From: an uncultured Acidobacteriota bacterium
Lineage (GTDB): Bacteria > Acidobacteriota > Terriglobia > UBA7540
DNA: 64,000 nt
Direction of reading: 5' to 3'
Assembly (NCBI GenBank): GCA_963804995.1
Contig: CAWDSK010000001.1
Span: 629,784 to 693,783, forward strand
The translations under genes and the position numbers were made by a program. Positions 21,673 to 35,042 of the stretch are shown one piece after another. Under the pieces are notes generated by a model that was given only the letters and a program-made list of their open reading frames with translations, did not search any database and was not told the DNA's origin. Within the stretch, counting starts at the first letter, position 1. Each line of letters begins with the position of its first letter.

Positions 21673-22245
21673 AACTCCTCCTCAGTTTGCAGGGTAGCTG
21701 CACTCCTCCACAGTTTGGGAAAGACGGGTCACTTGGGTCACGGTTCTACGCGGGCCTGATCGAATTTCCGAATCTCCTGCGGGGAGCTTTCTCGAACGCG
21801 GCGGTCGTACGTCGAGGGTGCTTCCTTTAGACCTCCTAAAATAAGGCTAGTTGGGCCCGGATGCAAGTGTTTGTAAGCGAAAACGCAAAAAATCCTGTTG
21901 CGACTGGCAGGCAAGGCGTCGGCTGAGGATCGGATCATCAGGCCGTCGAGCCCTCGGGTGATTTGCGAATGGTGATTGGCGATTCTCGAAGTCGGCATTT
22001 GATTCATCTTTTCATCTGACACCACCGATAACCGATGTGGGGAAGTCTGTCACGGGCGGATTGGGTCGGATGGGGTGAGGGGCTTGCCTGGCGGGTCCTG
22101 GCGAACCTCCATTTTCGTTTCTCGCGACCCTCCATTCCCCAGCATGGAGCGGCGCCGCGAGGCGCTCCGGCCGGGGACGTAGGGCCGAACGGCGTTCGGC
22201 CCAGGGCCAGCGCCGCTGGCCCCTACGGACGTGGCACGGGCATCT

Positions 22246-22373
22246 GAAGGTGTGAAAAAATACCATTTTCACCGCTGAGACGCTGAGACGCAGAGAAATG
22301 ACCCTTTGTTTTCAAACCTCTGCGCCTCCGCGTCTCCGCGGTGAAAGGCTTGATGGGATTTTTTCACAGCTTC
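22246..22373. mobile_element. Probable MITE shell around a CACCGCGGAGACGCAGAG-type palindrome
   Basis: Ends GAAGGTGTGAAAAAA / TTTTTTCACAGCTTC (14/15 inverted match); interior TTCACCGC.GAGACGC..GCAGAG...CTCTGCG..GCGTCTCCGCGGTGAA. Confidence 0.5.
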
Positions 22374-22418
22374 TCTTGCCCGTGATGTTCATGGCCAGGA
22401 TGGCCATGCCACACCGGA

Positions 22419-22780
22419 CTACCCGGTTTTGGAGGCTTGCTGGGGGCGGTTGAGCGCGTCGAGGAAACGGGGGAAGGCCTTTGCGTACGTCGCGAGATTG
22501 TCCGAAAAGTCCCCGATCACTTTGCTCACCACATCGGCCTTGCGGGGGTGATCCCATTCATCGAAGAGGTAATCGTCAATGCGGACAGGAAACAGCACAT
22601 TCTTATGTTCGCGGTCTTCCTTCTGCAAGGCGCGCTCGATTTCGCGAATGACGGGCGGGCTTTCGAGCGAATCCTTGGAGCAGATCACCACCAGTTTGTC
22701 ATAATGCCGGATGGCGGTGTCAATCTCGCCCCACACCGGCTCGCCCCACTTGGCATTTTCGTCAAACTTCCAACATGTTT
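22419..22780 (-). pseudogene. 5-prime-truncated TIR-domain gene
   Basis: CWKFDENAKWGEPVWGEIDTAIRHYDKLVVICSKDSLESPPVIREIERAL..LFPVRIDDY is TIR_2-like. The first strand of the domain and a credible start are missing. Confidence 0.65.
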
Positions 22781-22826
22781 CGGCGCCGCCGTTGACAGCG
22801 ATGCCTTGACGTTTTAAGATGATTAC

Positions 22827-23048
22827 ATGAATGCAACAATTGCCGCACCGATTGACTGGATCGAGGCTGTTGGAAATCTGCGTTTTCCATCGAAAGCGGA
22901 CCATCGCCTTCAGGAACTCATGGACCGGAACAACGAAGGGCTTTTGCAGGAATCTGAAAGGGAAGAACTGGAGGCATTGGTTGAATTGAGCGAGCGACTG
23001 TCGCTCGTCCGCGGCGAGGCATTGCAGATTCTAGGCAAGCAGCCATAA
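22827..23048 (+). CDS. Small putative antitoxin partner of the HNH nuclease
   Basis: 73 aa, RLQELMDRNNEG.L...EREELEALV; its stop overlaps the HNH start (TAATG). Confidence 0.65.
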   Translation: MNATIAAPIDWIEAVGNLRFPSKADHRLQELMDRNNEGLLQESEREELEALVELSERLSLVRGEALQILGKQP

Positions 23049-23461
23049 TGAGCGTCCCGGAAGAACTGTCGCGCACAGTTCGGGCACGCGCTCGCGGGCG
23101 GTGCCAATACTGCCTGATGCACGAGAGCCTCCAGGGAGCCACTTTCCACGTTGAGCACATCATCCCACAATGCCAAGGCGGGCGCTCCGATTTGCAGAAT
23201 CTCGTGCTGGCGTGCCCTGAATGCAATCTGCATAAAGCCAGCAGGATTACGGCGATTGATCCGGCGACTGGTGAGTCTGTGCAATTATTTCATCCCCTCC
23301 TGCAACGCTGGTCAGAACACTTCCGGTTTAATCGCTATCAGATCGAAGGATTGACCCCCGTGGGCCGCACAACCATAGAAGTGCTAAACCTGAATCACTC
23401 CCGCCGTCAGCGCATCCGCGAAGTTGAGGAAGCGTTTGGTCTCTATCCGCCAGCGCATTGA
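23048..23461 (+). CDS. HNH endonuclease
   Basis: RCQYC, HVEHIIP..GG....NL.LACPECN.HK, LFHP, GLTPVGRTTI. Confidence 0.9.
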   Translation: MSVPEELSRTVRARARGRCQYCLMHESLQGATFHVEHIIPQCQGGRSDLQNLVLACPECNLHKASRITAIDPATGESVQLFHPLLQRWSEHFRFNRYQIEGLTPVGRTTIEVLNLNHSRRQRIREVEEAFGLYPPAH

Positions 23462-23582
23462 GGGATTTTCCTTGATGACACTCACCCCGCGTCGGTGATT
23501 TGCGTCCAAATGAGGTCCGCCCCGCTGAGGTCCAGCCCGACAAGGTCCGCGACCAGTTGTCAGTTATCAGTCATCAGTATTC

Positions 23583-24044
23583 AGCGGGTAGCCACGGACA
23601 GTGCCTTTCTGTCCGTGAGCTCTTCCCTTGATGACGAACCTCCAGTCGATTGTGGCCGCACTGATTGCGTTCCCGGTGGGTTCTTGAAGGCATGGGGGTG
23701 GAGTGGTAATCTGCGGGCGTGTCAAACGTCCACCGTCTGCGCCTCACCGACCGCATCTTCTTTGTCAGTATTGGGACCGCTTTGTGCGCGACGAGAAGGA
23801 ATTCAATGAGCGTCTGGAGTACATGCACCTGAATCCCGTGAAGAAAGGGCTGGTGAAACGTCGGTAGCCACGGTCAGTGCAGTTCTGACCGTGGGTTCTT
23901 CTGGCCGTGGTCGAGTTACAACAATTTTGCTTTGGCCAAGGCAACGGTGGCGGCGTGTCCCATCCGGATTGATGACGTGCGATTGCCTTTGGGGTATCGC
24001 GCACGATAAAAGCCCACGGTCAGAAAAGCGCTGACGGTGGCTAC
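23583..24044 (+). mobile_element. REP/RAYT element 1: internally deleted REP-associated tyrosine transposase between GTAG-REP hairpins
   Basis: AGCGGGTAGCCACGGACAG..CTGTCCGTG left end; remnants MSNVHRLRLTDRIFFV, YWDRFVRDEKEFNERLEYMHLNPVKKGLVKR and WSSYNNFAL..LPLGYRA; internal REP at 23863-23901; right end CCACGGTCAG..CTGACGGTGGCTAC. A further degenerate right end lies at about 24083-24119. Confidence 0.8.
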
Positions 24045-24119
24045 GAGTTAAACTGCGATGGTGATATCACCGATGGAAAAAGGCCGCGGCCAAAAAGGCG
24101 CGGACAGTGGCTACCCGCT

Positions 24120-24545
24120 TTAAGGAGTGCGCATGCAGTGGGCGAGGCTGGGAGCAATGGCTTGGAAATGCTTGAGGTTCAGGGTGTAAATGTGGCGGGC
24201 GCCGCAGTTTGCCGCGCAGCGCAGCAGCAGCGCATCGTAAATGCGGCCGCCGGTCAGGCCTTGTTCGGAAGCTTGGCGAATGGTGGCGAGATACTCCCGT
24301 TCGCTAAGGGAGACAAGCGTCAACCGTTGGCGGACCTCTTCGACAAACAGGGCCGCCTGTTCGGGAGGAATCAGGGGCTTTACAGGTAAAGCGCTCATCG
24401 AGGCGTAGACTTCAGCCAAGGTGTGAATCCCGCAGGCGGACTGCTCCTTGCTGGCCGCAGCGAAGAGCCGGAGGCTCGATTCGTGATGCGCATGACCGCG
24501 CCAGAAGGCGGCAATGAGAACGGAGGTATCGAAGAAGTCTCTCAT
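24120..24545 (-). CDS. vapC: VapC PIN-domain toxin
   Basis: FFDTSVLIAA, LAEVY, GGRIYDALL, YTLNLKHF. Confidence 0.9.
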   Translation of the reverse strand: MRDFFDTSVLIAAFWRGHAHHESSLRLFAAASKEQSACGIHTLAEVYASMSALPVKPLIPPEQAALFVEEVRQRLTLVSLSEREYLATIRQASEQGLTGGRIYDALLLRCAANCGARHIYTLNLKHFQAIAPSLAHCMRTP

Positions 24546-24805
24546 CGGGAGAGAGTTGCGCCCAGGCGCTTGGCGCGTTCGAGGTCAATCAGATCGGGAA
24601 TGGAAGCGTTGCTCGGCTCGCCTTGATACACCCAGACGCCTCTTTCCTTTTGCAGAAGAGCCTGCGGACGAACCGGGCGCAAGGTAATGCGCTCACCTTC
24701 ACTTTCCAGCACGAGGGTGTCGCCGGCTCCGAGCCGCATCTCTTCGCGCAGAGTTTTGGGGAGAACCAGCCGCCCGGCTTTGTTGAGTGAAACCTTGGTC
24801 GTCAT
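24542..24805 (-). CDS. AbrB/MazE-family antitoxin
   Basis: VSLNKAGRLVLPKTLREEM.L..GD.L; overlaps the toxin start; upstream palindrome CCATTCTAGAATGG. Confidence 0.9.
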   Translation of the reverse strand: MTTKVSLNKAGRLVLPKTLREEMRLGAGDTLVLESEGERITLRPVRPQALLQKERGVWVYQGEPSNASIPDLIDLERAKRLGATLSR

Positions 24806-24869
24806 AATGCCATTCTAGAATGGTTTAAACCACATGTAAATGGCGAAACCAAGTACGGCAAGCAATTGT

Positions 24870-25317
24870 AGCGGGTAGCCATCACGGTCACGGCTTTTGT
24901 GGCGGTGGGTTCTTCCCCTGATGACGAAGCACCTAGTGGGCTTTTCCCTTGATGCCCGACTCCTGATCAACGGTGGCGGCCCTGACGGCGTTCCCCGTGG
25001 GTGCTCGAAGGCCTCTGGCCGCGGTGATAATCTGCGGGCGTGTCCAACGTCCGCCGACTCCGCGTGACGGACTGCATTTTCTTTGTCAATGTGAACCTGC
25101 GTCCACGCTTCAAGCGATTTAACGAATCTGCATGCGGTGAAGAAAGGGCTGGTGAAGCGCCCGGAGGATGGGCGGTGGTCGAGTTACAACAATTTTGCTT
25201 TGGACAAGGCAACGGTGGCGGCGTGTCCCATCCAGATTGATGACGTGCGATTGCCCTTGGGGTATCGCGCATGAGAAAAGCCCACGGTCAGAAAAACGCT
25301 GACCGTGGCCGCCCGCT
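24870..25317 (+). mobile_element. REP/RAYT element 2 (different internal deletion)
   Basis: AGCGGGTAGCC left end; MSNVRRLRVTDCIFFVNVNLRPRFKRFNE fused to VKKGLVKRPEDGRWSSYNNFALDKATVAACPIQIDDVRLPLGYRA-stop; right hairpin ends GTGGCCGCCCGCT. Confidence 0.8.
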
Positions 25318-25407
25318 TTGTTTTGCGCTATCATCGGAATCATCCGTTTTGTTAAATGGGTTTGGTAACGCTAGAACCACAAAGTACAAGGCTGGAGGGT
25401 AAGAATC

Positions 25408-25727
25408 ATGGCTATCGAGATTACCTTCGCCGATAACGTACCTCTGAAGGACGGTGGGAAACAGTTTATTATCCTTTTAGAGTTTCAAATGAGCAGTCGA
25501 GCCGCACAGTCATGCAAGGCATTACTGAACAAGCGAAATTATGGTCAAACCTGTCACGGGATGGCCTAATCGAAGTCGCAACTGAGTGGCTACGGTTTTG
25601 CACTGACAATAGAAGATACGATCCCTTTAATCATCCTGAAATTTCTAACCCAGAGGATGTAACGGTGCCGATCATGGACCATTGGCTCCAACATCACTCA
25701 TTTTCCCAATTGGCAACACAAAATTAG
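25408..25727 (+). CDS. Low-GC hypothetical protein (likely 1-bp frameshift in a T-run near 25476)
   Basis: RBS GGAGG and ATG at 25408; one extra T joins it to ORF 25512-25727. Confidence 0.4.
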
Positions 25728-25918
25728 AGCACTACCCAGGGATGACGATCCTTGCATTCACGGTTTTCACGATTGCTGGCATTTTGCTCTGGATAGGCGA
25801 CCACCGAGGATGGGCCATCCTCTGTTTTTTGATCGCCTTGGTAATCCTGTCAGCTATGCTGCTGTAGCAGAATTGGCACGCACACGCACGCGGACGGGGC
25901 AACCCATACAAACACTGT

Positions 25919-26827
25919 TTAGGATGAACTTTGCGGGGCGGAGAAACCGCCTGCGACCCAAACGAAAACCCGAAGTGTTCCCCAAGGTACCAAGAAACCA
26001 ACCACGGGATAACAAAAAGGCAGGAGCAGGCTGGCGATAAAGGCCAATCGGGCCTTGAGTGTCTTCGCTCCCCTGCGTGCCCACTCGCCCGTTGTGAGTT
26101 GAATTGAGGAAATCGCGCCACCCTTGTCTGCATTCACGGTTTGAATGCCATCGGTGCCCTTCACGTCAACCGTGATCTCGGCGGCAGGATCGTCGGCAAC
26201 GGCTTTATCGTATACGTTAGCGGCCTGCGCCGGATAATCGGGAATAATTAAAACTGGTGGTGTTTCCAAAGTGTACCCAGGCGGTATCGGCGGCGGTTGC
26301 GTAGGCGTTTCCAGCCGATAACCGGGCGGTATAGGTGGTATTGCACGCGGTGGAATAGCCGGTTGCGCAGGAGCATCCAGCGTGTAGCCCGGTGGCGGCG
26401 GCGGTACAGCGGGCTTTTCTAGCGTATACCCCGGTGGAAGCGGGGGGACCGGCGGCTTTATCGTGAATTGTTGTGTCTTGTGCTGAGCGAGGTAACTTTT
26501 AATCGCCTCAGCAATCTTATCGTCGGACATGCCACCGGGGAAGGACACGTTGCCCACTCCAGGAACCTCAACGATTTTGTCGGGAGTGATGTATATTTCC
26601 TGCTTTCCGCCGATGCTCGAAAAAGCTACAGGCCCATGCTGCTTGGCTTGGTAGTCTTTTATGGCTGCGTTCACATCGAGCATAACCGGCAAGGCTTGAA
26701 GCCGTTCAAATCTCGTATGCGAATTCCAGACATTCATGAGATTCCAATAACCAAAGGCTCCGCCCGCGACGCATCCCAGAGCCCCAAGCACGATTCCGAC
26801 TCGCCGCATTCCTTCTCTCGTGTTCAT
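25919..26827 (-). CDS. Membrane protein with two terminal TM helices and Pro-rich PPGYTLE repeats
   Basis: RBS GGAGGA; N- and C-terminal hydrophobic helices; four PP(L/P/I)PPGY(T/R)L(E/D) units. Confidence 0.7.
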   Translation of the reverse strand: MNTREGMRRVGIVLGALGCVAGGAFGYWNLMNVWNSHTRFERLQALPVMLDVNAAIKDYQAKQHGPVAFSSIGGKQEIYITPDKIVEVPGVGNVSFPGGMSDDKIAEAIKSYLAQHKTQQFTIKPPVPPLPPGYTLEKPAVPPPPPGYTLDAPAQPAIPPRAIPPIPPGYRLETPTQPPPIPPGYTLETPPVLIIPDYPAQAANVYDKAVADDPAAEITVDVKGTDGIQTVNADKGGAISSIQLTTGEWARRGAKTLKARLAFIASLLLPFCYPVVGFLVPWGTLRVFVWVAGGFSAPQSSS

Positions 26828-26976
26828 TGGTGTTCCTCCGCGCGTCGCTAACCTACTGTATACCTCGACTCGGGGGGGAGGGAAAGGGAAAAAGGCAGGG
26901 ACGAGCGGCAAAGCAGGTGCCCCATGCCGGAGGAGCTAGGGAACGGAAGGTTGGCGTATCGTAAGGGAGACTCATG

Positions 26977-27162
26977 GCGGGTAGCGACGGTCAATGCAGT
27001 TCTGACCGTAGGTTCTTCTGGCGGTGGTCGAGTTACAACAATTTTGCTTTGCACAAGGCAACGGTGGCGGCGTGTCCCAACCAGATTGATTACGTGCGAT
27101 TGCCATTGGGGTATCGCGCCTGAGAAAAACCCACGGTCAGAAAAACGCTGACCGTGGCCGCT
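26977..27162 (+). mobile_element. REP/RAYT mini-element 3
   Basis: GCGGGTAGCGACGGTCA..TGACCGT + RAYT 3-prime tail + CCACGGTCAGAAAAACGCTGACCGTGGCCGCT. Confidence 0.85.
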
Positions 27163-27946
27163 AGTCACTCTCAAGGCCCTCTAGCAAAGAGCTTAGCGGT
27201 GTCTTGTACTCTTTGTTCTGTGCCTTAGCATACCGTAGCTGCTGCGCAATAAAAGACAGTTCCTTCTCGAAATCGTCGTCTGATAGTGACGCTGCATGCA
27301 TAAGCACTAAGCGGCGCATAACGATGTCTAGCTGAGCGAACATTTTCTCAAGGTGGCGCACTGCGTACTCTTCAATATCGCCGTTTGGGCATAGTATGCA
27401 TGTGTCAGTTTTCCCACCGCAGCCTAAGCCAGACTTCTTTACCCGCCACAAGACATAGGCGCCAAGATGCCACATCTCCTCAGCGCGCAGTGTTGGGAGG
27501 TGCGCCGTGTCTGGGAAGAATAATCCCAAATAACTATCCGCTAAGACCCCACCCGCGCCGGTGAACTCAACTGTTTTGGCCGGTCTAAGCCTTACCCCAC
27601 GCGAGCACAACATTTCACTTTTGCCGTCACAAGCAAGCCCCATGATTAATGCAAAAGTAGCTGGTTGAGGGTCCAGCTTTATGGCCTTGAAGGTAGTCCG
27701 CAGAATTCCTTCTATCTCAGTTTTTGCTTGTGGTAATGAGCTACAAGAGGGTACTGATTCGGTTATAGACTGCGCGGTCGTCTGTAGGTAGTCCCAGTCG
27801 TTAGAGCCGGTGATAACCACGGATACTGCATCGCCTGCCCCATACCATATTTTCTTCTGCCTAGACTTTCCTGTATCGTGGGTGAGTTCCCTATCTGCGC
27901 ATAACACGATACCGTCCAAGCATTGGAAACCAGCGGCGATGGTCAC
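27161..27946 (-). CDS. Ntn-hydrolase / proteasome-beta-like protein
   Basis: (M)TIAAGFQCLDGIVLCADRELT with putative nucleophile Thr, TG.G and GCGGKTD segments. The ORF is open upstream to 28033. Confidence 0.6.
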   Translation of the reverse strand: MTIAAGFQCLDGIVLCADRELTHDTGKSRQKKIWYGAGDAVSVVITGSNDWDYLQTTAQSITESVPSCSSLPQAKTEIEGILRTTFKAIKLDPQPATFALIMGLACDGKSEMLCSRGVRLRPAKTVEFTGAGGVLADSYLGLFFPDTAHLPTLRAEEMWHLGAYVLWRVKKSGLGCGGKTDTCILCPNGDIEEYAVRHLEKMFAQLDIVMRRLVLMHAASLSDDDFEKELSFIAQQLRYAKAQNKEYKTPLSSLLEGLESD

Positions 27947-28068
27947 GGATTCTACCTTATCCAGCAACTCACGGGGTTTATGCGGAAGGCGTAAGGAAGG
28001 ATACGGCGGCTTATGCCATATGTCAACTTGCACGGATTCAACATAGTGGTAGAGTTTGATAAATGGGT

Positions 28069-28257
28069 AGCGGGTAGCCGGTCAGTGCAGTTCTGACCGT
28101 GGGTTCTTCCGGCGGTGGTCGAGTTACAACAATTTTGCTTTGGACAAGACAACGGTGGCGGCGTGTCCCATCCAGATTGATCACTTGCGATTGCCCTTGG
28201 GGTATCGCGCATGAGAAAAGCCCACGGTCAGAAAAGCGCTGACCGTGGCTACCCGCT
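28069..28257 (+). mobile_element. REP/RAYT mini-element 4
   Basis: AGCGGGTAGCC..GGTCAGTGCAGTTCTGACC + RAYT tail + CCACGGTCAGAAAAGCGCTGACCGTGGCTACCCGCT. Confidence 0.85.
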
Positions 28258-28492
28258 CGTGCAGCCGTAGCCGAGCAATTAGCGGTCAGCGTGGGAACCA
28301 TCTGCGGGCAGGCCAAGGCGGTCGCTAATTAGGTCTGCCGGTTTCTACGGCGCGGGCTAACTCCAAGCCTCGCTAAGGCATGTCGGGTGAAGGCGAATAA
28401 CCGCCTGAAAAGCCTCGCCGGGCCTGCAATGACCCACAGCTCAGTGAACTTGCGTGACCTGCGGAGGCGCAGCAGGAATTGGCAAAAGCGGT

Positions 28493-28927
28493 TTAAGTGC
28501 CTTTCGCCGCTTTGTCAACATCCTTGCGGAGAGTCTTGGCCACGTCTTGAGCACGGAGCTTAACCGTGTCTGCTCCGCCAAACTTGAGATGCGGTTGGAA
28601 GTCTTTCTCCCACAAGCGCAATCCATCAGGAGTCTTCATGACCACAGTCACACGGGCACGAGACTCTTCAGCATAGACACGAACAGACAAGGCGCCTGTC
28701 AAAACAGCGTCGGCGGTCTTTGCATCTTCGGTTGTGGCGAAATGGGCTTTGCCCAGTTCGTCTGCAAGAAGAAGTCGGAAACGCTCGGCTTCATCGCTTT
28801 GGCCCATCGAGCCGACATAGATTTTCTTGACCGACGCAAGAGACCCGTTTCCTTGAGCGAAGCATGTAGCCGTCACCAACACGCAGAATAGGATGACAGT
28901 GGTCATGGCTAGATTTTTAGTCGTCAT
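28493..28927 (-). CDS. Secreted hypothetical protein
   Basis: RBS GGAG; signal peptide ending TCFA-Q; mature part SLASVKKIYVGSMG..ADAVLTG. Confidence 0.7.
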   Translation of the reverse strand: MTTKNLAMTTVILFCVLVTATCFAQGNGSLASVKKIYVGSMGQSDEAERFRLLLADELGKAHFATTEDAKTADAVLTGALSVRVYAEESRARVTVVMKTPDGLRLWEKDFQPHLKFGGADTVKLRAQDVAKTLRKDVDKAAKGT

Positions 28928-29066
28928 TGATTTCTCCAGAGCGGGGCTTCGGCATACGGGATTTTCGACAATACGCCTCGAAAGGAAGTCTTTCAACCGG
29001 AATTTCCGCTCTCATTTTCCGGTTGACCGGTAACATACACCTGACCGCCTCTGAAGGCCATGTCCC

Positions 29067-29366
29067 GCGGGCCACGGTCAGCGATTTTCTGACCGTGGGC
29101 TTTTCTCATGCCCGATGCTCCAGCGGCAGGCCGTCAATCGGGATGGAACACGCCGCTACCGTTGCCCTGTTCAAAGTAAGTTTGCTGTAACCCGACCACC
29201 GCCAGAAGAACCCACGGTCAGGACTGGTCGCCGCAGCGACACCGTGGCTACCCCCGCCTCACCCGCCGCTTGCGCGCGGGATTGAACTATTCCTGCCTGC
29301 TATGCCTTCGTCATCAAGGGAAGAACCCCAAGGCCAGAAAAACGCTGACCGCAATGGCTACCCGCT
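29067..29366 (-). mobile_element. REP/RAYT element 5 (inverted, three-hairpin subfamily B)
   Basis: Reverse complement: REP + about 80-bp leader (TTCCCTTGATGACGAAG..) + REP + tail WRWSGYSKLTLNRATVAACSIPIDGLPLEHRA-stop + REP. Confidence 0.8.
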
Positions 29367-29595
29367 AGGCCGTCACGCCCGGGTACTCAAATACTGGTGT
29401 TTGGATAACGCGCGAGGGCGACTTTCCCTCCCATACGATGTGCTGCAAGCGTTCAGCGGTTTCGGGAGAAAAGTAGCGCTCGCCCGTCTTCAGGGACACC
29501 CGTGCGGGCACGTGCTCGACGATGATGAAACGCCCTTCGATTTCCAGCGTGTAGGTTACGTTCTGCTCAACGAAAGTTTCTTCTGAAACATCCAT
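29365..29595 (-). CDS. YgiT/MqsA-type antitoxin-like protein
   Basis: TYTLEIEGRFIIVEHVPARVSLKTGERYFSPET; directly downstream of a DUF4258 gene. Confidence 0.75.
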   Translation of the reverse strand: MDVSEETFVEQNVTYTLEIEGRFIIVEHVPARVSLKTGERYFSPETAERLQHIVWEGKSPSRVIQTPVFEYPGVTA

Positions 29596-29596
29596 A

Positions 29597-29908
29597 TCAT
29601 ATTCTCCGTTGCTTGTATTCGACCCACTCGTTGGGATCGGGTTCATAGACGGTGACGATCTTCACCAGAGGGCGAGACGGATAGCTGCAATGGACATGAA
29701 TAGGTCTGTCCATTCTCGTGAAACCCAGGATCAGGCAACTCGGGCCATACTTATCCTCGGGATAATCCTCAATGACCGCCCCTCTGCTTATCGCTTCCCG
29801 AACCTCCTGAACGTTGACGTGTCGCAGGATAGCCTGGTCAATTGCGTGTTGCGAAAACTCGAATAAATCTGCTGCAACCTTGGTGCGTATTGCTTCGATC
29901 AGTGGCAT
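29597..29908 (-). CDS. DUF4258-family putative toxin
   Basis: FSQHAIDQ..R, VIEDYPEDKYGPSCLILG..RPIHV, IVTVYEPDP..W. Confidence 0.85.
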   Translation of the reverse strand: MPLIEAIRTKVAADLFEFSQHAIDQAILRHVNVQEVREAISRGAVIEDYPEDKYGPSCLILGFTRMDRPIHVHCSYPSRPLVKIVTVYEPDPNEWVEYKQRRI

Positions 29909-30015
29909 CTCTTGGATGATAGTCCAAGGTTAGCAGAGCTGCAACAACGTGAGATACATAAAGCCCAAGGCCAGCCCCTGACTTATATCGAATTCGCGGG
30001 TGGCGCCAGCCCGCG

Positions 30016-30302
30016 AGCGGGTGGCCACGGTCAGCGTTTTTCTGACCGTGGGCTTTTCTCATGCCTGATGCTCCAGCGGCAGGTCGTCAATCTGGATGGA
30101 ACACGCCGCTATCGTTGCCCTGTCCAAAGTAAGTTTGCTGTAACTCAACCACCGCCAGAAGAACCCACGGTCAGGACTGCACTGACCGTGGCTACCCCCG
30201 CCTCACCCGCCGCTTGCGCACGGGATTGAACTATTCCTGCCTGCTATGCCTTCGTCATCAAAGGAAGAACCCACGGTCAGAACTGCACTGACTGTGGCCC
30301 GT
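30016..30302 (-). mobile_element. REP/RAYT element 6 (inverted, subfamily B)
   Basis: Near-duplicate of 29067-29366; tail WRWLSYSKLTLDRATIAACSIQIDDLPLEHQA-stop. Confidence 0.8.
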
Positions 30303-30310
30303 TGCGGCGC

Positions 30311-30748
30311 TTAGACGCCTAGGACGCGCAATCCGGCGGCGCGGGCCAATTTGGCTTGATCCCGGTCGAAGGTGTAAAAATCGTCGGCGGCAAGCGCCAG
30401 GGCGGAAGCCACGTGGAGGGCGTCCAGGGCGCGGCAACCCAGGCTGGGCGCGTAGCGCCGGGCGAGTTCGCGCGCCCGCGCCCAGGTTTCCGAGGGCAAA
30501 TCTTCCCAACGCCAAATGCCGGTTTGCAAGTCGTGGGTGAAGTTTTCCTCGATGGCCCGAGCCTCGCGCGCCGTCCACCCCTTGGGGCGAGCCGTAACCG
30601 CGTAAACGATGCTGGTGAATTCCGTCTCGCCGAAGGGCGTAACCATGAACACGGGATGATGGGCCTGGACCAAGGCGATAGCGGGGCGGGAGTTCACATC
30701 GCGGCCATACAGCGAGACGAGGAAACTGGTGTCCGCGTAGGAATTCAA
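30311..30748 (-). CDS. vapC: VapC PIN-domain toxin
   Basis: YADTSFLVSLY, RALDALHVASA, FYTFDRDQ. Confidence 0.9.
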   Translation of the reverse strand: MNSYADTSFLVSLYGRDVNSRPAIALVQAHHPVFMVTPFGETEFTSIVYAVTARPKGWTAREARAIEENFTHDLQTGIWRWEDLPSETWARARELARRYAPSLGCRALDALHVASALALAADDFYTFDRDQAKLARAAGLRVLGV

Positions 30749-30987
30749 AGGCGGCTTCGGTCCTTTCGAAGCATCTCGCCGACGTTGAGATCAATGCGCC
30801 GGTTGCCAAAGATCTTCTTCTGGCGCGCGGCGAAATCCGGGTAGGCTTTCCCGGCGGCCGGTTCGGGAATGATGCGGGCGAGAATTTCATGCCGCTTGCG
30901 GAGGACCAGGGCCTCGCCGCGGCGTAGCGGCCCCTCGACCTTGCGCGAGAACTCCTGGCGGACCTCCCGGACGGTTACGTTCTTCAT
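30745..30987 (-). CDS. Phd/YefM-like antitoxin
   Basis: MKNVTVREVRQEFS...GE...ARIIP; upstream palindrome GTTACAC-N7-GTGTAAC. Confidence 0.8.
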   Translation of the reverse strand: MKNVTVREVRQEFSRKVEGPLRRGEALVLRKRHEILARIIPEPAAGKAYPDFAARQKKIFGNRRIDLNVGEMLRKDRSRL

Positions 30988-31025
30988 GTTACACATTTTA
31001 GGTGTAACCTGGGGAGGAAGTCAAT

Positions 31026-31070
31026 AGCGGGTAGCCAGGGTCAGCGTTTTTCTGACCGTGGCTACCCGCT
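31026..31070. repeat. REP element 7: minimal 45-bp hairpin carrying both outer ends
   Basis: AGCGGGTAGCCAGGGTCAG-CGTTTTT-CTGACCGTGGCTACCCGCT, 18/19 paired stem. Confidence 0.85.
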
Positions 31071-31574
31071 TTGAAATCGGCGGGGCGGCGGCGCGTGCGT
31101 TCGAGCAGCACCGAGAACAGCTTGGGAGGCAACAGCCCGATATCCTCGGCGAAAAGGCAGGAGAGCAGTCGCATCAAAAAGTGCGCGGCGCGCTGTGGGT
31201 CGACGCCCCTCGCTCGCAAGGAGTCCGCGAGGGTTGCGAACTCAGCGGCGGCCATTTCCGTTACATCTGCCGTGCTGCGATCGGGCCGGAGCCGGGCCGG
31301 ATCGGTGAACACCGCGCGGAGAACCTCGATCGGGGGTAGCGTGCAATCGGCGGTTGCTTGGTTCTTCAGCAGGTCGTCAAGCGAGAAGCGATAGACTTGC
31401 TTTGCCGTGCCGGTGAAGTTGGTATGAACCTCGAACCGCGAAATCCTCTGACGCTGGATGCGGCTCGCCCAGCACGTCACAAAGTTCAAGGAAATGCATT
31501 TGGGCGCCCGCCCGCTCCGTGAGGCTAGCGTTTCGCCACTTGTTGACAAAATCAGGTAAGGTCAGCGTTGACAT
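31071..31574 (-). pseudogene. Truncated MmeI/YeeA-type (type IIL) restriction-methylase fragment
   Basis: FVNKW..ASLTERAGAQMHFLELCDVLG, internal deletion, then FEVHTNFT..AAHFLMRLL.CLFAEDIGLLP; ends abruptly at element 7. Confidence 0.75.
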
Positions 31575-31759
31575 CTGAGTAGCAGCAAGACTGTAGCATA
31601 TCGCTTAACGCTGTTGAACACTTCTGCCACAATTCCAACTGTGTATTGCATTCGCCGCGTACGACCTGGTCGTCTTGCGAAACTCCACGAAGAAGGATTT
31701 GACGACCCAGGCGGAAATCATCGGGTCAAACATCAACGCGGCATTGGGCTTCGGAGACC

Positions 31760-32230
31760 AACTGACAGCGAGCTGAAACAATACCGGGATCATTTGAAGG
31801 AAGAGGTCACGGCCCGCACGGCGGAGCTGATGGCTGCCGAGGTCGAGCTTCGTCACGCCCAGAAACTCGAATCCGTCGGCAGGCTCGCCTCAGGAATCGC
31901 CCACGAAATCAACACCCCCATTCAGTTCATCGGCGATAACACACGTTTCCTCCAGGAAACCTTTGCGACACTGCGCAAGTTGCTCGAGATGTATGGGACC
32001 CTATCAACAAGGCCCTCGTCAGCACCCTGACTGTGGCGCGCAATGAGCTCAAGTACGTCTCTTTACGACCAAAGAAATCGGGCGAGGGACAGGACAGGGC
32101 TTGGCAATTGCCCGCTCCGTTGTGGTCGATCGGCACGGGGGAACACTCACCTTCGCGAGCGAAGTTGGCAAGGGAACCACTTTCTACGTTCGCCTGCCGC
32201 TCGGTGGGGAAGCAAAGCCCGGGGAAGAAA
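31760..32230 (+). pseudogene. Histidine kinase remnant with internal deletions
   Basis: AQKLESVGRLASGIAHEINTPIQFIGDN H-box, then out-of-frame TKEIG.GTGQGLAIARSVV..HGG.L.F.SEVGKGTTF. Confidence 0.7.
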
Positions 32231-33140
32231 ATCCCGCCTGCAACCCGCTGCAAGGGTGATCATCCTGCATTGAAAAGCCGTGATTACTTGCTGTTTTAGC
32301 AGGGAATTTCTGGAGGTGCGGCTTTTCAATTCCACCCTTTGTCTTTCGATTTTCTATGGCGGTGGCCGCCCCGCAGTACAAGTCCGCAATTTCTTGTTTT
32401 TTCTATCTAGGATTCTGTGCCATTTGTGGTATTACGAAAATAAGAGGGCTTGATCGTTTGGGTGTGGTTCCATCGTGCTGCGCTACCGGCCTTCTCAACC
32501 AAACAGGATAGAAATTGAAATCATGGCCCTCTCCGAGGGGTCGCAGATTCGCCGCGGCGGAAGAGGGTGGACTGCAGCCGGCGTTTTCACCAGCCGGGGC
32601 GGGACGGGTGAGGGGTTACTTCACCACCCGATGAACGGACCCGCACCCAACCGAAAAACTGGCAGCACCTTTTCTAGTTTGCTTACCGCTTCGCCACGCA
32701 ACACCACCTGCTTCGAGACTCTGATCTCTAGATCGAACGAGAGTTGGCGTGAGAGGCTCAGGCGGAAAATCTGCGCATCCGGCCGGGCGAGGGGGGAAAA
32801 GGTTGAGCCCGGCATGGCGTACTCCCCGACTCTAATCCTGTAGGCCCGCGACTTTTTGTCATTAGTGGGACATGTCCCACATGTTGCTCTCCGCGGGGCA
32901 TAGCGAGCGAGGTCCCACTTAATTCCCCACCCTCACGCGTTTTCTTCCTATGACTTTTGATGAGTGGCTCCGCCGCAATATGCCACAGCATCTGCCCGCG
33001 GCAATTGCGCCAGCCTTCTTGAATCAGTCAACTCATCTTCCCAGATGCCTTCGGTGGCCGCACCTTTACTCGGAGGGATTTCAATCCTCCATCAAAATCC
33101 CACCACGGCCCGAACGGGGTGTGCGACAAATCTGTGTGGG

Positions 33141-34469
33141 TCAGGCCGCGCGGGGGCGACGGTTCTCCCAGTAATCCTCGAATTTGCCGCTCAAGCGATG
33201 GCAGCGAAGGGCGATGATGGCATTGGCCCCGCGGACCCTCCAGAACATACCGGAGCGCTTCAGCCGAGTGCCGATGAGGGTTTTGCAGCCGGCTTCGACG
33301 ACCCCGGAACCTACGAACAGATGCTGACGCCGAAAGGTCGGATAGCGCATCCGTTGGGCGTTGACGGTAAAATAATCTGCCGCGTGGCGCAAGAGTTCGG
33401 CGGCTTCGGGCGTGGCTGGGAACAGCGAGCGCAAATCGCGCACTAGGGATTCGATCCGCCCGCTCTCCAACTTCTCCTCCCGTTTTCTGGTCCACCTTCG
33501 GCGGTGGCGCTCGTCGGTGGGCCAGAGCTGGCCCGACAGCTCCCATAAGTGCTGTCGGGCATGATAAAGATCCACAATCTGAATGGCTCCCGGAAAGTGC
33601 TCGGCGGTGAGGTTCCAAATCCAAGGAGCACCATCGCCGATCACCACTTTCTTTTGGGCCCGGTTCCAGCCCCGACGATATGCTTCGAGGTAGATGCGCC
33701 GCCCAAAAACCTCGGCCGTTTCGATGCCTCCCGTGTAGGTGGTGGAGCCTTCTTCGCGCGCCGGTCGGCCCCGGGCATCCCGTGTCGTCTGGGCGAAGAC
33801 ACAACCTAATTTCACTTCCCGCGGGCGCGCTTGCTCGCTCTGTTTCCCCGCTCGACCCTCGGTTTCCGAACTCACCACCGGTACTCCCGTCCCATCCATC
33901 TCCACATAGAGTACCGGAATTTCCGGTCCCCTCACCTGCGGCAAGTTCCGTTGCAGGCCTTGCTGGATCGAGGCTTGTTCCTGGGCAGCAATCTCGGCGC
34001 CCAGAGCCTCTGCCTGCCGTTCCACGGCCTTGGTGGTCACCTCCAACCCGGCCAGCAGTTGCAGTTGTTCTCGACCGAGCGCAAAGGAGGTTTCGCTGCC
34101 CACCACCGCCATCATCCGTCGCACCCCAGGAGAATATTCCGTGCCCTCCACATCCAGTTCCTGATCGCGGGGACTCTGTCCCCGGTGACAGGCCGGACAA
34201 ACGTAATAGGGACGCTCGGTCTCGACCCGCCCCAGCACGGTCAGCAGTTGCTTCCGACGCCTGCCGCGGTAGGGTGCCCCCTGACCACAGCCGCAGGGAA
34301 CTTGGCGAGGGCACTCGTCCGGGGCGGCCAGCAACTCCTCCAGCACCGCCGCCCCCGCCCGGTGCAAGGCCGCGCGTGTGGCCATCTCGACGGCTTCCAA
34401 ATCCAGCGTCCCGGACTTGCGCCGCCCAGCAAAGATCACCGCCAGCAGGGACTCTACTTCTCGCGCCAC
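33141..34469 (-). CDS. ISKra4-family transposase
   Basis: YVEMDGTGVP, REVKLG, IGDGAPWIW, VDLYHARQHL, GSGVVEAGCK..RLKRSGMFW. Confidence 0.9.
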   Translation of the reverse strand: MAREVESLLAVIFAGRRKSGTLDLEAVEMATRAALHRAGAAVLEELLAAPDECPRQVPCGCGQGAPYRGRRRKQLLTVLGRVETERPYYVCPACHRGQSPRDQELDVEGTEYSPGVRRMMAVVGSETSFALGREQLQLLAGLEVTTKAVERQAEALGAEIAAQEQASIQQGLQRNLPQVRGPEIPVLYVEMDGTGVPVVSSETEGRAGKQSEQARPREVKLGCVFAQTTRDARGRPAREEGSTTYTGGIETAEVFGRRIYLEAYRRGWNRAQKKVVIGDGAPWIWNLTAEHFPGAIQIVDLYHARQHLWELSGQLWPTDERHRRRWTRKREEKLESGRIESLVRDLRSLFPATPEAAELLRHAADYFTVNAQRMRYPTFRRQHLFVGSGVVEAGCKTLIGTRLKRSGMFWRVRGANAIIALRCHRLSGKFEDYWENRRPRAA

Positions 34470-34858
34470 TTCCCGCTGAATGGCTTCCGCCGTTTTTTTT
34501 CCTGCTCCGCCGCTTCGGCCTCCTGGGGGAGGGGGCGCTGACGGCAGATTTTTTCGTTCACCTCCACGAAGGCCCGGCGCAGTTGTTGAAACCTGCGGAA
34601 CTCGGCAATCTGTCGTTCCGCCTGGTGCCGGGCGGCAGGGCTGGGGAAGGTTTCGCTGACGGTCCGGCCCTGCACCTTGTAAGTGAGCCGGAAGTTAGGG
34701 CCGTGGCCGGGATGATGGGGCTGATGACAGTGACAGTTGGACTTGCCGCAGCGGGCGGTAATGCTGGTGATCGAACCACTGCGGAGGTCACCCAGTTGGG
34801 CGATCTGGCGGATCAACTCCGCCCGTTGGTTTTCCAGGACGTTAAGGGATTGGGGCAT
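34454..34858 (-). CDS. IS accessory ORF (DUF6788-like), possibly fused to the transposase by -1 frameshift
   Basis: LRSGSI....RCGKSNCHC....PGHGP; ends in an A8 run. Confidence 0.75.
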   Translation of the reverse strand: MPQSLNVLENQRAELIRQIAQLGDLRSGSITSITARCGKSNCHCHQPHHPGHGPNFRLTYKVQGRTVSETFPSPAARHQAERQIAEFRRFQQLRRAFVEVNEKICRQRPLPQEAEAAEQEKKRRKPFSGKWREK

Positions 34859-35042
34859 GTTAAGGCCTCCTCTATCCTAACGTATCATATACGTTAGGAT
34901 ATAAGCGACAAAAAAAGAGCCAGCCCAGAGCGTTACATTTATGTCGCGCACCCGCCCGAACGTTGCGGATTCCGCGCGTTCACGTTAGAGTAAAAAACTG
35001 GCCAATGCTGGCTCCTCTGAATATCGATGTAGGAACTGATCG

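Follow-up and report, generated by a model that had tools for sequence, protein, structure and literature searches.

A 64,000-nucleotide stretch of DNA from an uncultured Acidobacteriota bacterium (assembly GCA_963804995.1, contig CAWDSK010000001.1, positions 629,784 to 693,783; the whole stretch is called the window) contains, between positions 23583 and 31070, a row of seven related repetitive extragenic palindromic (REP) elements that alternate with six unrelated gene blocks. All seven elements derive by internal deletion from a REP>RAYT<REP unit, in which two REPs flank a gene for the REP-associated tyrosine transposase (RAYT), a HUH enzyme. Comparison with relatives revealed that the AG/CT dinucleotides at element ends are derived from the target DNA, that units of genes and elements are shared between genomes beside different neighbours, and that one two-block insertion or deletion is broken inside a hairpin. 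On these grounds it is probable that the array grew in two steps. A RAYT supplied from elsewhere would have joined the ends of elements at CT sites, and copies of the element would then have undergone exchange, probably through both RAYT and RecA, which shuffled the resulting units; these likely pass between species as well.

Layout of the array

An earlier note, made from the sequence alone, had described seven related elements and six intervening blocks, and both are present where it placed them apart from small corrections: element 1 extends to 24119 through a second, degenerate hairpin ending in CTACCCGCT, element 3 begins at 26976, and element 6 ends at about 30303. The array occupies 7.5-7.6 kb. 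Below, G000 denotes the source assembly (92% complete), other G numbers the genomes of relatives, L numbers compared contigs, and X numbers contigs from independent sequencing runs.

23583-24119, plus strand: element 1; REP, RAYT 5' fragment (GTG at 23719), internal deletion, inserted REP (23864-23894), RAYT 3' fragment (stop at 24007-24009) and two inverted hairpins
24120-24869, minus strand: block 1; AbrB/MazE antitoxin (24542-24805), VapC (24120-24545) and promoter-like site (24840-24812)
24870-25317, plus strand: element 2; REP>RAYT remnant<REP with internal deletion
25318-26975, minus strand: block 2; Pro-rich predicted membrane protein (25919-26824, minus) and small plus-strand open reading frames (ORFs), without family match
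26976-27162, plus strand: element 3; short derivative resembling a REP doublet (REPIN), its right end overlapping the TAG stop of the block 3 gene
27163-28068, minus strand: block 3; Ntn/proteasome-subunit-like ORF (27161-28033)
28069-28257, plus strand: element 4; 189-nt derivative
28258-29066, minus strand: block 4; predicted secreted protein (28493-28996)
29067-29366, minus strand: element 5; three-hairpin derivative, reversed, its end overlapping the YgiT TAG stop
29367-30015, minus strand: block 5; DUF4258 (29597-29908) and YgiT-type gene (29365-29646)
30016-30303, minus strand: element 6; three-hairpin derivative
30304-31025, minus strand: block 6; antitoxin-like ORF (30745-30996), VapC (30311-30748) and promoter-like site (31024-30995)
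31026-31070, no strand assigned: element 7; double-foot REP
31067-31574, minus strand: right anchor; truncated MmeI-like gene, cut at a CT shared with the element end and continuing in G013 (L041)

The outer end AGCGGGTAG stands at 23583, 24870, 28069 and 31026, and CTACCCGCT at 24111, 28249, 29358 and 31062, with variants at 26976, 30016 and 25309. Elements 1 to 4 lie forward and elements 5 and 6 reversed, element 7 is a symmetric double-foot hairpin, and every hairpin arm opens with CT. As single-stranded DNA (ssDNA), element 4 is predicted to fold end to end (-50.4 kcal/mol, z -6.6). At 27161-27163 and 29365-29367 element ends overlap the TAG stop codons of cargo genes, where a CT join would leave the gene intact.

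The elements descend from a RAYT unit

The array elements translate to pieces of one RAYT protein, and the REP/RAYT origin that the earlier note had claimed is borne out by its intact, REP-flanked parent in relatives. This parent is a 169-amino-acid Y1 HUH protein (DHWH, YMHLNP), and its gene in G043, G007, G002 and G044 is flanked by two copies of the array's REP that face inward. Intact copies of the cognate gene include L054:1390-1896 and L048:1393-1899, both on the minus strand. It scores above the cut-off of the NCBIfam RAYT model NF047646 and matches the E. coli enzyme TnpA-REP (PDB 4ER8) with an E value of 5e-12. Its motifs DHWH, WQ and YMHLNP fit class 2 (nearest 2.2) and no listed subclass exactly, as far as Table 1 of PMC6006769 goes. 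Subclass 2.4, characterised by a double foot and an in-gene REP, was considered and dropped, as the motifs do not fit the same table.

Eighteen full-length RAYT copies more than 60% identical were collected, and REP was detected on both sides in 15. Thirteen of the 18 had at least 900 nt of flank on a side, and none of these matched the flank of another intact copy. Since no two intact copies share flanks, the REP>RAYT<REP unit appears to be mobile in this lineage. The G020 copy occupies a site that is empty in G000, and the copy seen in G013 is frameshifted. The RAYT genes of L050:1360-1908 (G020) and L263 contain an in-frame REP insertion whose position matches that in element 1.

The earlier note had suggested a genome search for the hairpin together with an intact RAYT. 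The hairpin, with its GTAG foot on the 5' side, gave 153 matches in G000, and the cognate RAYT was found intact only in relatives. Fourteen Y1 matches were obtained in G000; the full-length ones belong to sister families (36-39% identity) and the cognate gene occurs only as fragments, so the array elements are non-autonomous derivatives that arose by deletion.

Element ends lie at the C|T site of RAYT enzymes

Upstream of GTAG, the conserved sequence extends as far as an AG five bases away (49/109 G000 ends). We compared 473 distinct outer ends with element-free homologues. A single-copy homologue was available for 24, one of which was dropped after it proved to be actually filled, leaving 23; seven RAYT-internal and six repeat-flank ends were counted separately (AG at -5 in 1/7 and 3/6, respectively). 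The AG was present in 18 of the 23 element-free homologues at exactly the position 5 nt before GTAG, over a background of 6% (binomial p ~3e-18), and within one base of the junction position in 22 of the 23. Identity between element and homologue dropped from 19/23 at -4 to 8/23 at -3. Because AG is already there in the element-free homologues, it stems from the target; read on the opposite strand, the element terminates as CTACCCGC|T, at CT. Examples are element 7 compared with the uninterrupted MmeI-like gene of G013, and a paralogue in G000 that is 99% identical.

According to the available parts of the papers, TnpA-REP cuts C|T and recombines inverted REP (iREP) sites in vitro (PMC3333891, PMC8266576), and it also cuts more than 400 nt from a bacterial interspersed mosaic element (BIME) (PMC3333891). 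The ends are thus joined at the TnpA-REP cut site, in agreement with the earlier note, which had suggested that they may serve as sites of HUH-mediated recombination, and the alignments support cutting and joining at C|T as a genomic footprint. Since the joins fall at the two-letter cut site of a RAYT, this enzyme likely attaches the genes.

Among 17 junctions whose far side extends for at least 1.4 kb, none is a clean insertion: the other half of the target is missing or resumes after a gap. Six further junctions were too short, and a search for empty sites with two flanks also returned no clean insertion. This suggests that joining is one-ended, by analogy with IS91/ISCR capture, and non-orthology of the homologues could give the same picture. 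Block 4 and the MmeI anchor are each joined at different CT sites in different genomes. No orthologous empty site for the array locus was found among relatives, because the locus lies at a synteny break. A G013 locus with TIR and MmeI genes (C10) was considered as its counterpart and proved to be a different locus. Fragments of the same MmeI-like gene, cut at different places, border element arrays in several genomes (L095, L097, L077, L280).

Units are shared and rearranged among relatives

Block 1 (AbrB-VapC), including both element borders, is 98.9% identical to a unit in an unrelated G013 array and 99.2% identical to one in metagenome contig L297; the G000/G013 background is 78% (median of 35 long matches). 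This unit has three different right neighbours, each beginning at the outer end of the element. A 1243-nt ParE unit is common to G013 and G001 (96.7%), and a 783-nt unit to G013 and G005 (99.4%; core 84-87%). Block 5 (DUF4258-YgiT) recurs at 96.8% in G006 with another neighbour, and block 4 at 95% in L280, where it meets another element, the join falling at a different CT (28449).

L280 also shares element 7's junction with MmeI, but there a fusion at the hairpin links element 5 directly to element 7, and blocks 5 and 6 (1.8 kb) are absent. In L317 the left junction of element 7 stands on a full element, which makes element 7 likely a hybrid, and its right junction recurs in L280. The earlier note had proposed to look in related genomes for gain, loss or reordering of cassettes with breakpoints at the element ends, and the L280 difference, the AbrB-VapC unit and the DUF4258-YgiT unit supply gain, loss and new neighbours of this kind.

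Arrays of five to seven elements were found at other sites in G013, G005, G001 and G043. The relatives' arrays carry toxin-antitoxin, restriction and uncharacterised genes (82 ORFs and 97/111 called ORFs scanned) in mixed orientation, and the G005 array fills a site that is a 99-bp gap in G000. Single units recur at about 98-99% in contigs from independent sequencing runs: block 1 in X1 and X5, and block 6, extending into element 7, in X5 and X6. The whole array was in none of these contigs, which break at repeats, the best sharing 25% of its words; joints in the runs that had a side of 20-30 letters were regarded as artefacts of the repeats. A further array in G043 (L391:6474-13641) combines a shorter element subfamily with repeated HigBA-like units, whose counterparts at three different places in G000 are 88-92% identical.

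Distribution of the element family

G000 contains 126 elements, or 136 with a wider query set. The array is the densest cluster, with seven elements in 7.6 kb; the next densest has four, and the maximum in 2000 random placements was also four. Gaps of less than 2 kb between elements numbered 23/118 against 3.9 expected. While 69 of the 136 elements have a neighbour within 4.5 kb, 67 have none. The density comparison raised in the earlier note therefore has two sides: the array is far denser than chance, and the elements are dispersed genome-wide rather than confined to the locus.

The exact hairpin pattern is present in 26 of 29 genus genomes and a reversed control pattern in none, and named records that carry it are nearly all titled Acidobacteriota or Terriglobia. 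The sequencing runs that hold most of the array are peat and soil metagenomes. Copies of the element 6 type, 93-95% identical, occur in G013, G001 and G006. A plasmid collection searched with element 4 gave no match. The same REP is found in two near-identical phage contigs (L135 and L136, 3001-3031), where it overlaps the start of a 519-amino-acid ORF; phage are a possible vehicle.

The GTAG-foot hairpins of G000 number 905 and fall into several families. Among the sister REP families, at least two have their own intact RAYT (C2:304770-305309, C5:58038-58922), and the upstream consensus of the sister families differs from the AG of the array's family. A 1724-bp IS110 element (NF033542) has entered the stem of the array's REP at an identical base in four G000 copies (99.9-100% identical), and its junction recurs in G010 and G043; the loci are C6:541002, C6:1341243, C6:2030592, C3:1259615, L109 and L073. 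A 1.95-kb reverse-transcriptase element with more than 30 near-identical G000 copies (C6:1168292-1170445 and about 35 other places) lies beside a sister REP family.

Cargo genes

The gene labels of the earlier note held in part. VapC (PIN) in two blocks, AbrB/MazE and DUF4258 were confirmed by Pfam, and YgiT was borderline (TIGR03831, 20.1 bits with a cut-off of 20.2). The Ntn/proteasome-like label of block 3 comes from Atlas features only, at a high score. The 'Phd' antitoxin and the Pro-rich and secreted proteins had no match in Pfam or NCBIfam, and PADLOC gave no match on the six blocks. A sigma-70-like site stands at the gene start in four of the six blocks; five sites were found in all, with 4.1 expected by chance. 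In G000, 20 of 94 toxin genes lie within 1 kb of an element, compared with 5 of 119 housekeeping genes (p 1.6e-4) and 3.8% of random positions.

Surroundings of the array

The left flank is accessory, and no element lies to its left:

22419-23461, no strand assigned: left flank; TIR fragment (22419-22904, minus), and a pair made up of a small ORF and an HNH gene (22827-23461, plus)

The accessory patch is flanked by repeats, palindromic nonamers and tandem heptamers (22260-22356, 23557-23582). A multi-copy ISKra4 element at 33117-34957 adjoins the synteny break; the block that starts at 34952 adjoins the block at C9:125.6 kb of G000 in seven relatives. An Rfam scan of 22000-33000 at E 0.1 gave two weak miRNA matches only, and no Acido-Lenti-1.

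Comparison with known systems

The array belongs to the REP/RAYT kind except for a fixed RAYT locus. It shares with E. coli-type REPtrons, BIMEs and REPINs with TnpA-REP the GTAG foot and hairpin, inverted doublets, a Y1 HUH gene flanked by the same REP, the C|T site, RAYT fragments in elements, a double-foot REP and an in-frame REP in the RAYT gene, as far as the available parts of the sources describe them (PMC3333891, PMC8266576, PMC6006769; PDB 4ER8). It differs in that the RAYT gene does not occupy one fixed, vertically inherited locus, intact copies here being patchy and in unrelated contexts, and in that the elements border accessory cargo and likely travel with it between species. REPtrons are described, in the accessible text of the same three papers, as not transposing as a unit.

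Like integrons and clusters of attC sites lacking an integrase (CALINs), the array lines up short unrelated blocks with a folded-ssDNA site at the border of each, its cargo is rich in toxin-antitoxin and defence genes, and its blocks are gained, lost and reused elsewhere. Integrons have fixed att sites, the integrase IntI, sites in one orientation, and mostly promoterless cassettes under one promoter. The array differs from these in lacking IntI, in its RAYT-remnant sites, which stand in both orientations and are dispersed genome-wide, in capture apparently at any CT, and perhaps in the promoter-like sites of the blocks themselves. The absence of an integrase, noted earlier for the window, extends to the G000 assembly (92% complete), where the best match to TIGR02249 reached 77.9 bits against a cut-off of 265. 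The array thus works like an integron array but is not an integron, as intI is absent and orientation is mixed. The REP/RAYT origin stated in the earlier note is supported, as are the gain and loss of units that it proposed to look for; the proposed integron analogue falls short in that there is no dedicated integron-like locus (67/136 elements are isolated) and no cognate RAYT here.

IS91/ISCR elements have one precise end and an oriIS/terIS pair. Capture by IS91/ISCR and Helitrons resembles the present case in its HUH enzyme and in genes truncated at the join, and perhaps in one precise end joined to variable DNA. In contrast to IS91/ISCR, a Y1 RAYT would act here in trans on many small elements, whose parent is a 169-aa RAYT and not an IS91-type transposase. 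An analogy of TnpA-REP to one-ended capture was drawn in PMC3333891, at least in its accessible text, where capture of genes by TnpA-REP and insertion near BIMEs were hypothesised in 2012 and RAYT fragments inside BIMEs were noted. The pdif (dif) modules of Acinetobacter, as described in the available part of PMC13141974, are likewise integrase-free shuffled rows with many toxin-antitoxin genes and an enzyme encoded elsewhere; they use XerCD sites on plasmids, whereas HUH-type hairpins on a chromosome are found here.

Capture of genes by a HUH enzyme, which the earlier note had not recognised as described, had therefore been proposed before in PMC3333891, by its accessible text; for shuffled REP-bounded arrays we found no description in the literature searched, whose coverage is incomplete and leaves supplements outside (Fig. 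S7 of PMC3333891 may show captured genes). The accessible parts of PMC6006769, PMC3733652, PMC3116915, 10.1101/2024.07.17.603846, 10.1101/2021.07.10.451892 and 10.1101/2024.10.14.618302 contain no such arrays.

Models for growth of the array

We propose that a RAYT supplied from elsewhere would act in trans and join element ends to CT sites in unrelated DNA. Such joining would tag neighbouring genes and create gene-plus-element units. Units would then be added, removed and given new neighbours as element copies undergo exchange, through RAYT acting on the CT sites of the hairpins or RecA acting over 30-300 bp, and these units would pass between co-occurring species. Toxin-antitoxin addiction favours retention, and toxin-antitoxin blocks may be kept because they resist loss. 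We regard this scheme as likely; its inferred parts are RAYT as the joiner, the one-ended joins, the enzyme of the swaps, the transfer route, and toxin-antitoxin retention.

Several observations weigh against this two-step scheme. Two of the joins do not fall at CT, one at the left end of the G013 unit and one at MmeI (L095). G000, 92% complete as it is, has no intact cognate RAYT, so present activity is not indicated. No circular cassette or circle junction was seen in the sequencing runs, which were available as contigs only, of other organisms. At several breakpoints the break falls within a stretch of 30-300 bp that the elements have in common, which RecA can use. As for the cargo, 74 of the 94 toxin genes in G000 lie more than 1 kb from any element, other repeats also crowd PIN genes (a third REP family 4/55, heptamer tandems 5/55; random 1-2%), and ordinary metabolic genes make up some inter-element blocks elsewhere in G000. 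Phd-VapC occurs without this REP family in six relatives (79-93% identity) and AbrB-VapC is element-free in G018 (79%), so cargo can move by other means. Block 3 has no counterpart in any relative or sequencing run examined, and no cover in four runs. The earlier note had named the same genes in the same order without the elements as a result that would speak against it; Phd-VapC is found without them, and shared units elsewhere end at or inside elements.

The alternative that survives best, which we consider rather unlikely, is passive colonisation. Toxin-antitoxin and accessory genes would reach variable intergenic hot spots by their own routes, the RAYT would insert only its elements at CT, and the elements would hitch-hike, with RecA sometimes deleting between copies. 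The genome-wide spread of the elements, the element-free cargo and the other repeats enriched near toxins all fit, as do the different cargo carried by the same sites in several relatives and the position of the locus at a synteny break beside ISKra4. Toxin-antitoxin pairs also cluster in small high-turnover spots without REPs in Photorhabdus, by the available part of PMC13617665. However, shared units end at or inside elements and not randomly, no testable junction is a clean insertion (0/17), and the same cargo or anchor (block 4, MmeI) is joined at different CT sites across genomes.

Cassettes run entirely by the RAYT, without host recombination, are improbable. Here ssDNA circles, made of cargo to a variable upstream CT plus an element, would be excised and inserted at CT near a resident REP. 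One-ended CT joins, the CT that opens every hairpin arm and the clustering of elements are consistent with this, and in the available text of PMC3333891 cleavage by TnpA-REP reaches more than 400 nt away from a BIME, and the enzyme is proposed to insert near BIMEs and take up genes. In contrast, no circle was seen, no unit with CT joins at both ends on one strand was found, and the cognate RAYT is missing from G000 and frameshifted in the G013 copy. An integron-derived CALIN or another recombinase, such as the REP-targeting IS110 of G000, is hardly credible: the toxin-antitoxin-rich cargo, the main genes of the six blocks on one strand in the window and the IS110 at one base of the REP stem in four copies recall such systems, but G000 has no intI above cut-off, the spacers are RAYT remnants, relatives' arrays mix gene orientations and the IS110 junction is absent from the array.

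Two-step growth by joining and exchange is therefore the reading that we retain. A bolder form of it, possible though somewhat doubtful, takes the mobile REPtron as a substitute for an integrase, in which the RAYT captures genes at any CT and itself swaps units via hairpins, assembling arrays of toxin-antitoxin and defence genes and trading them between species. If true, it would make a HUH-based system the counterpart of integrons and give RAYTs a concrete function in the host; the cited work, in its available parts, reports cutting and joining in vitro only. The present family offers a footprint of C|T joining in genomes that is exact to the base, together with REP-bounded gene units reused across species, and the enzyme, ends and natural cargo are now named for a direct test. 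If the RAYT drives the swaps, this would be a route to toxin-antitoxin and defence arrays that integron finders overlook, and such arrays would be a place to mine uncharacterised defence genes.

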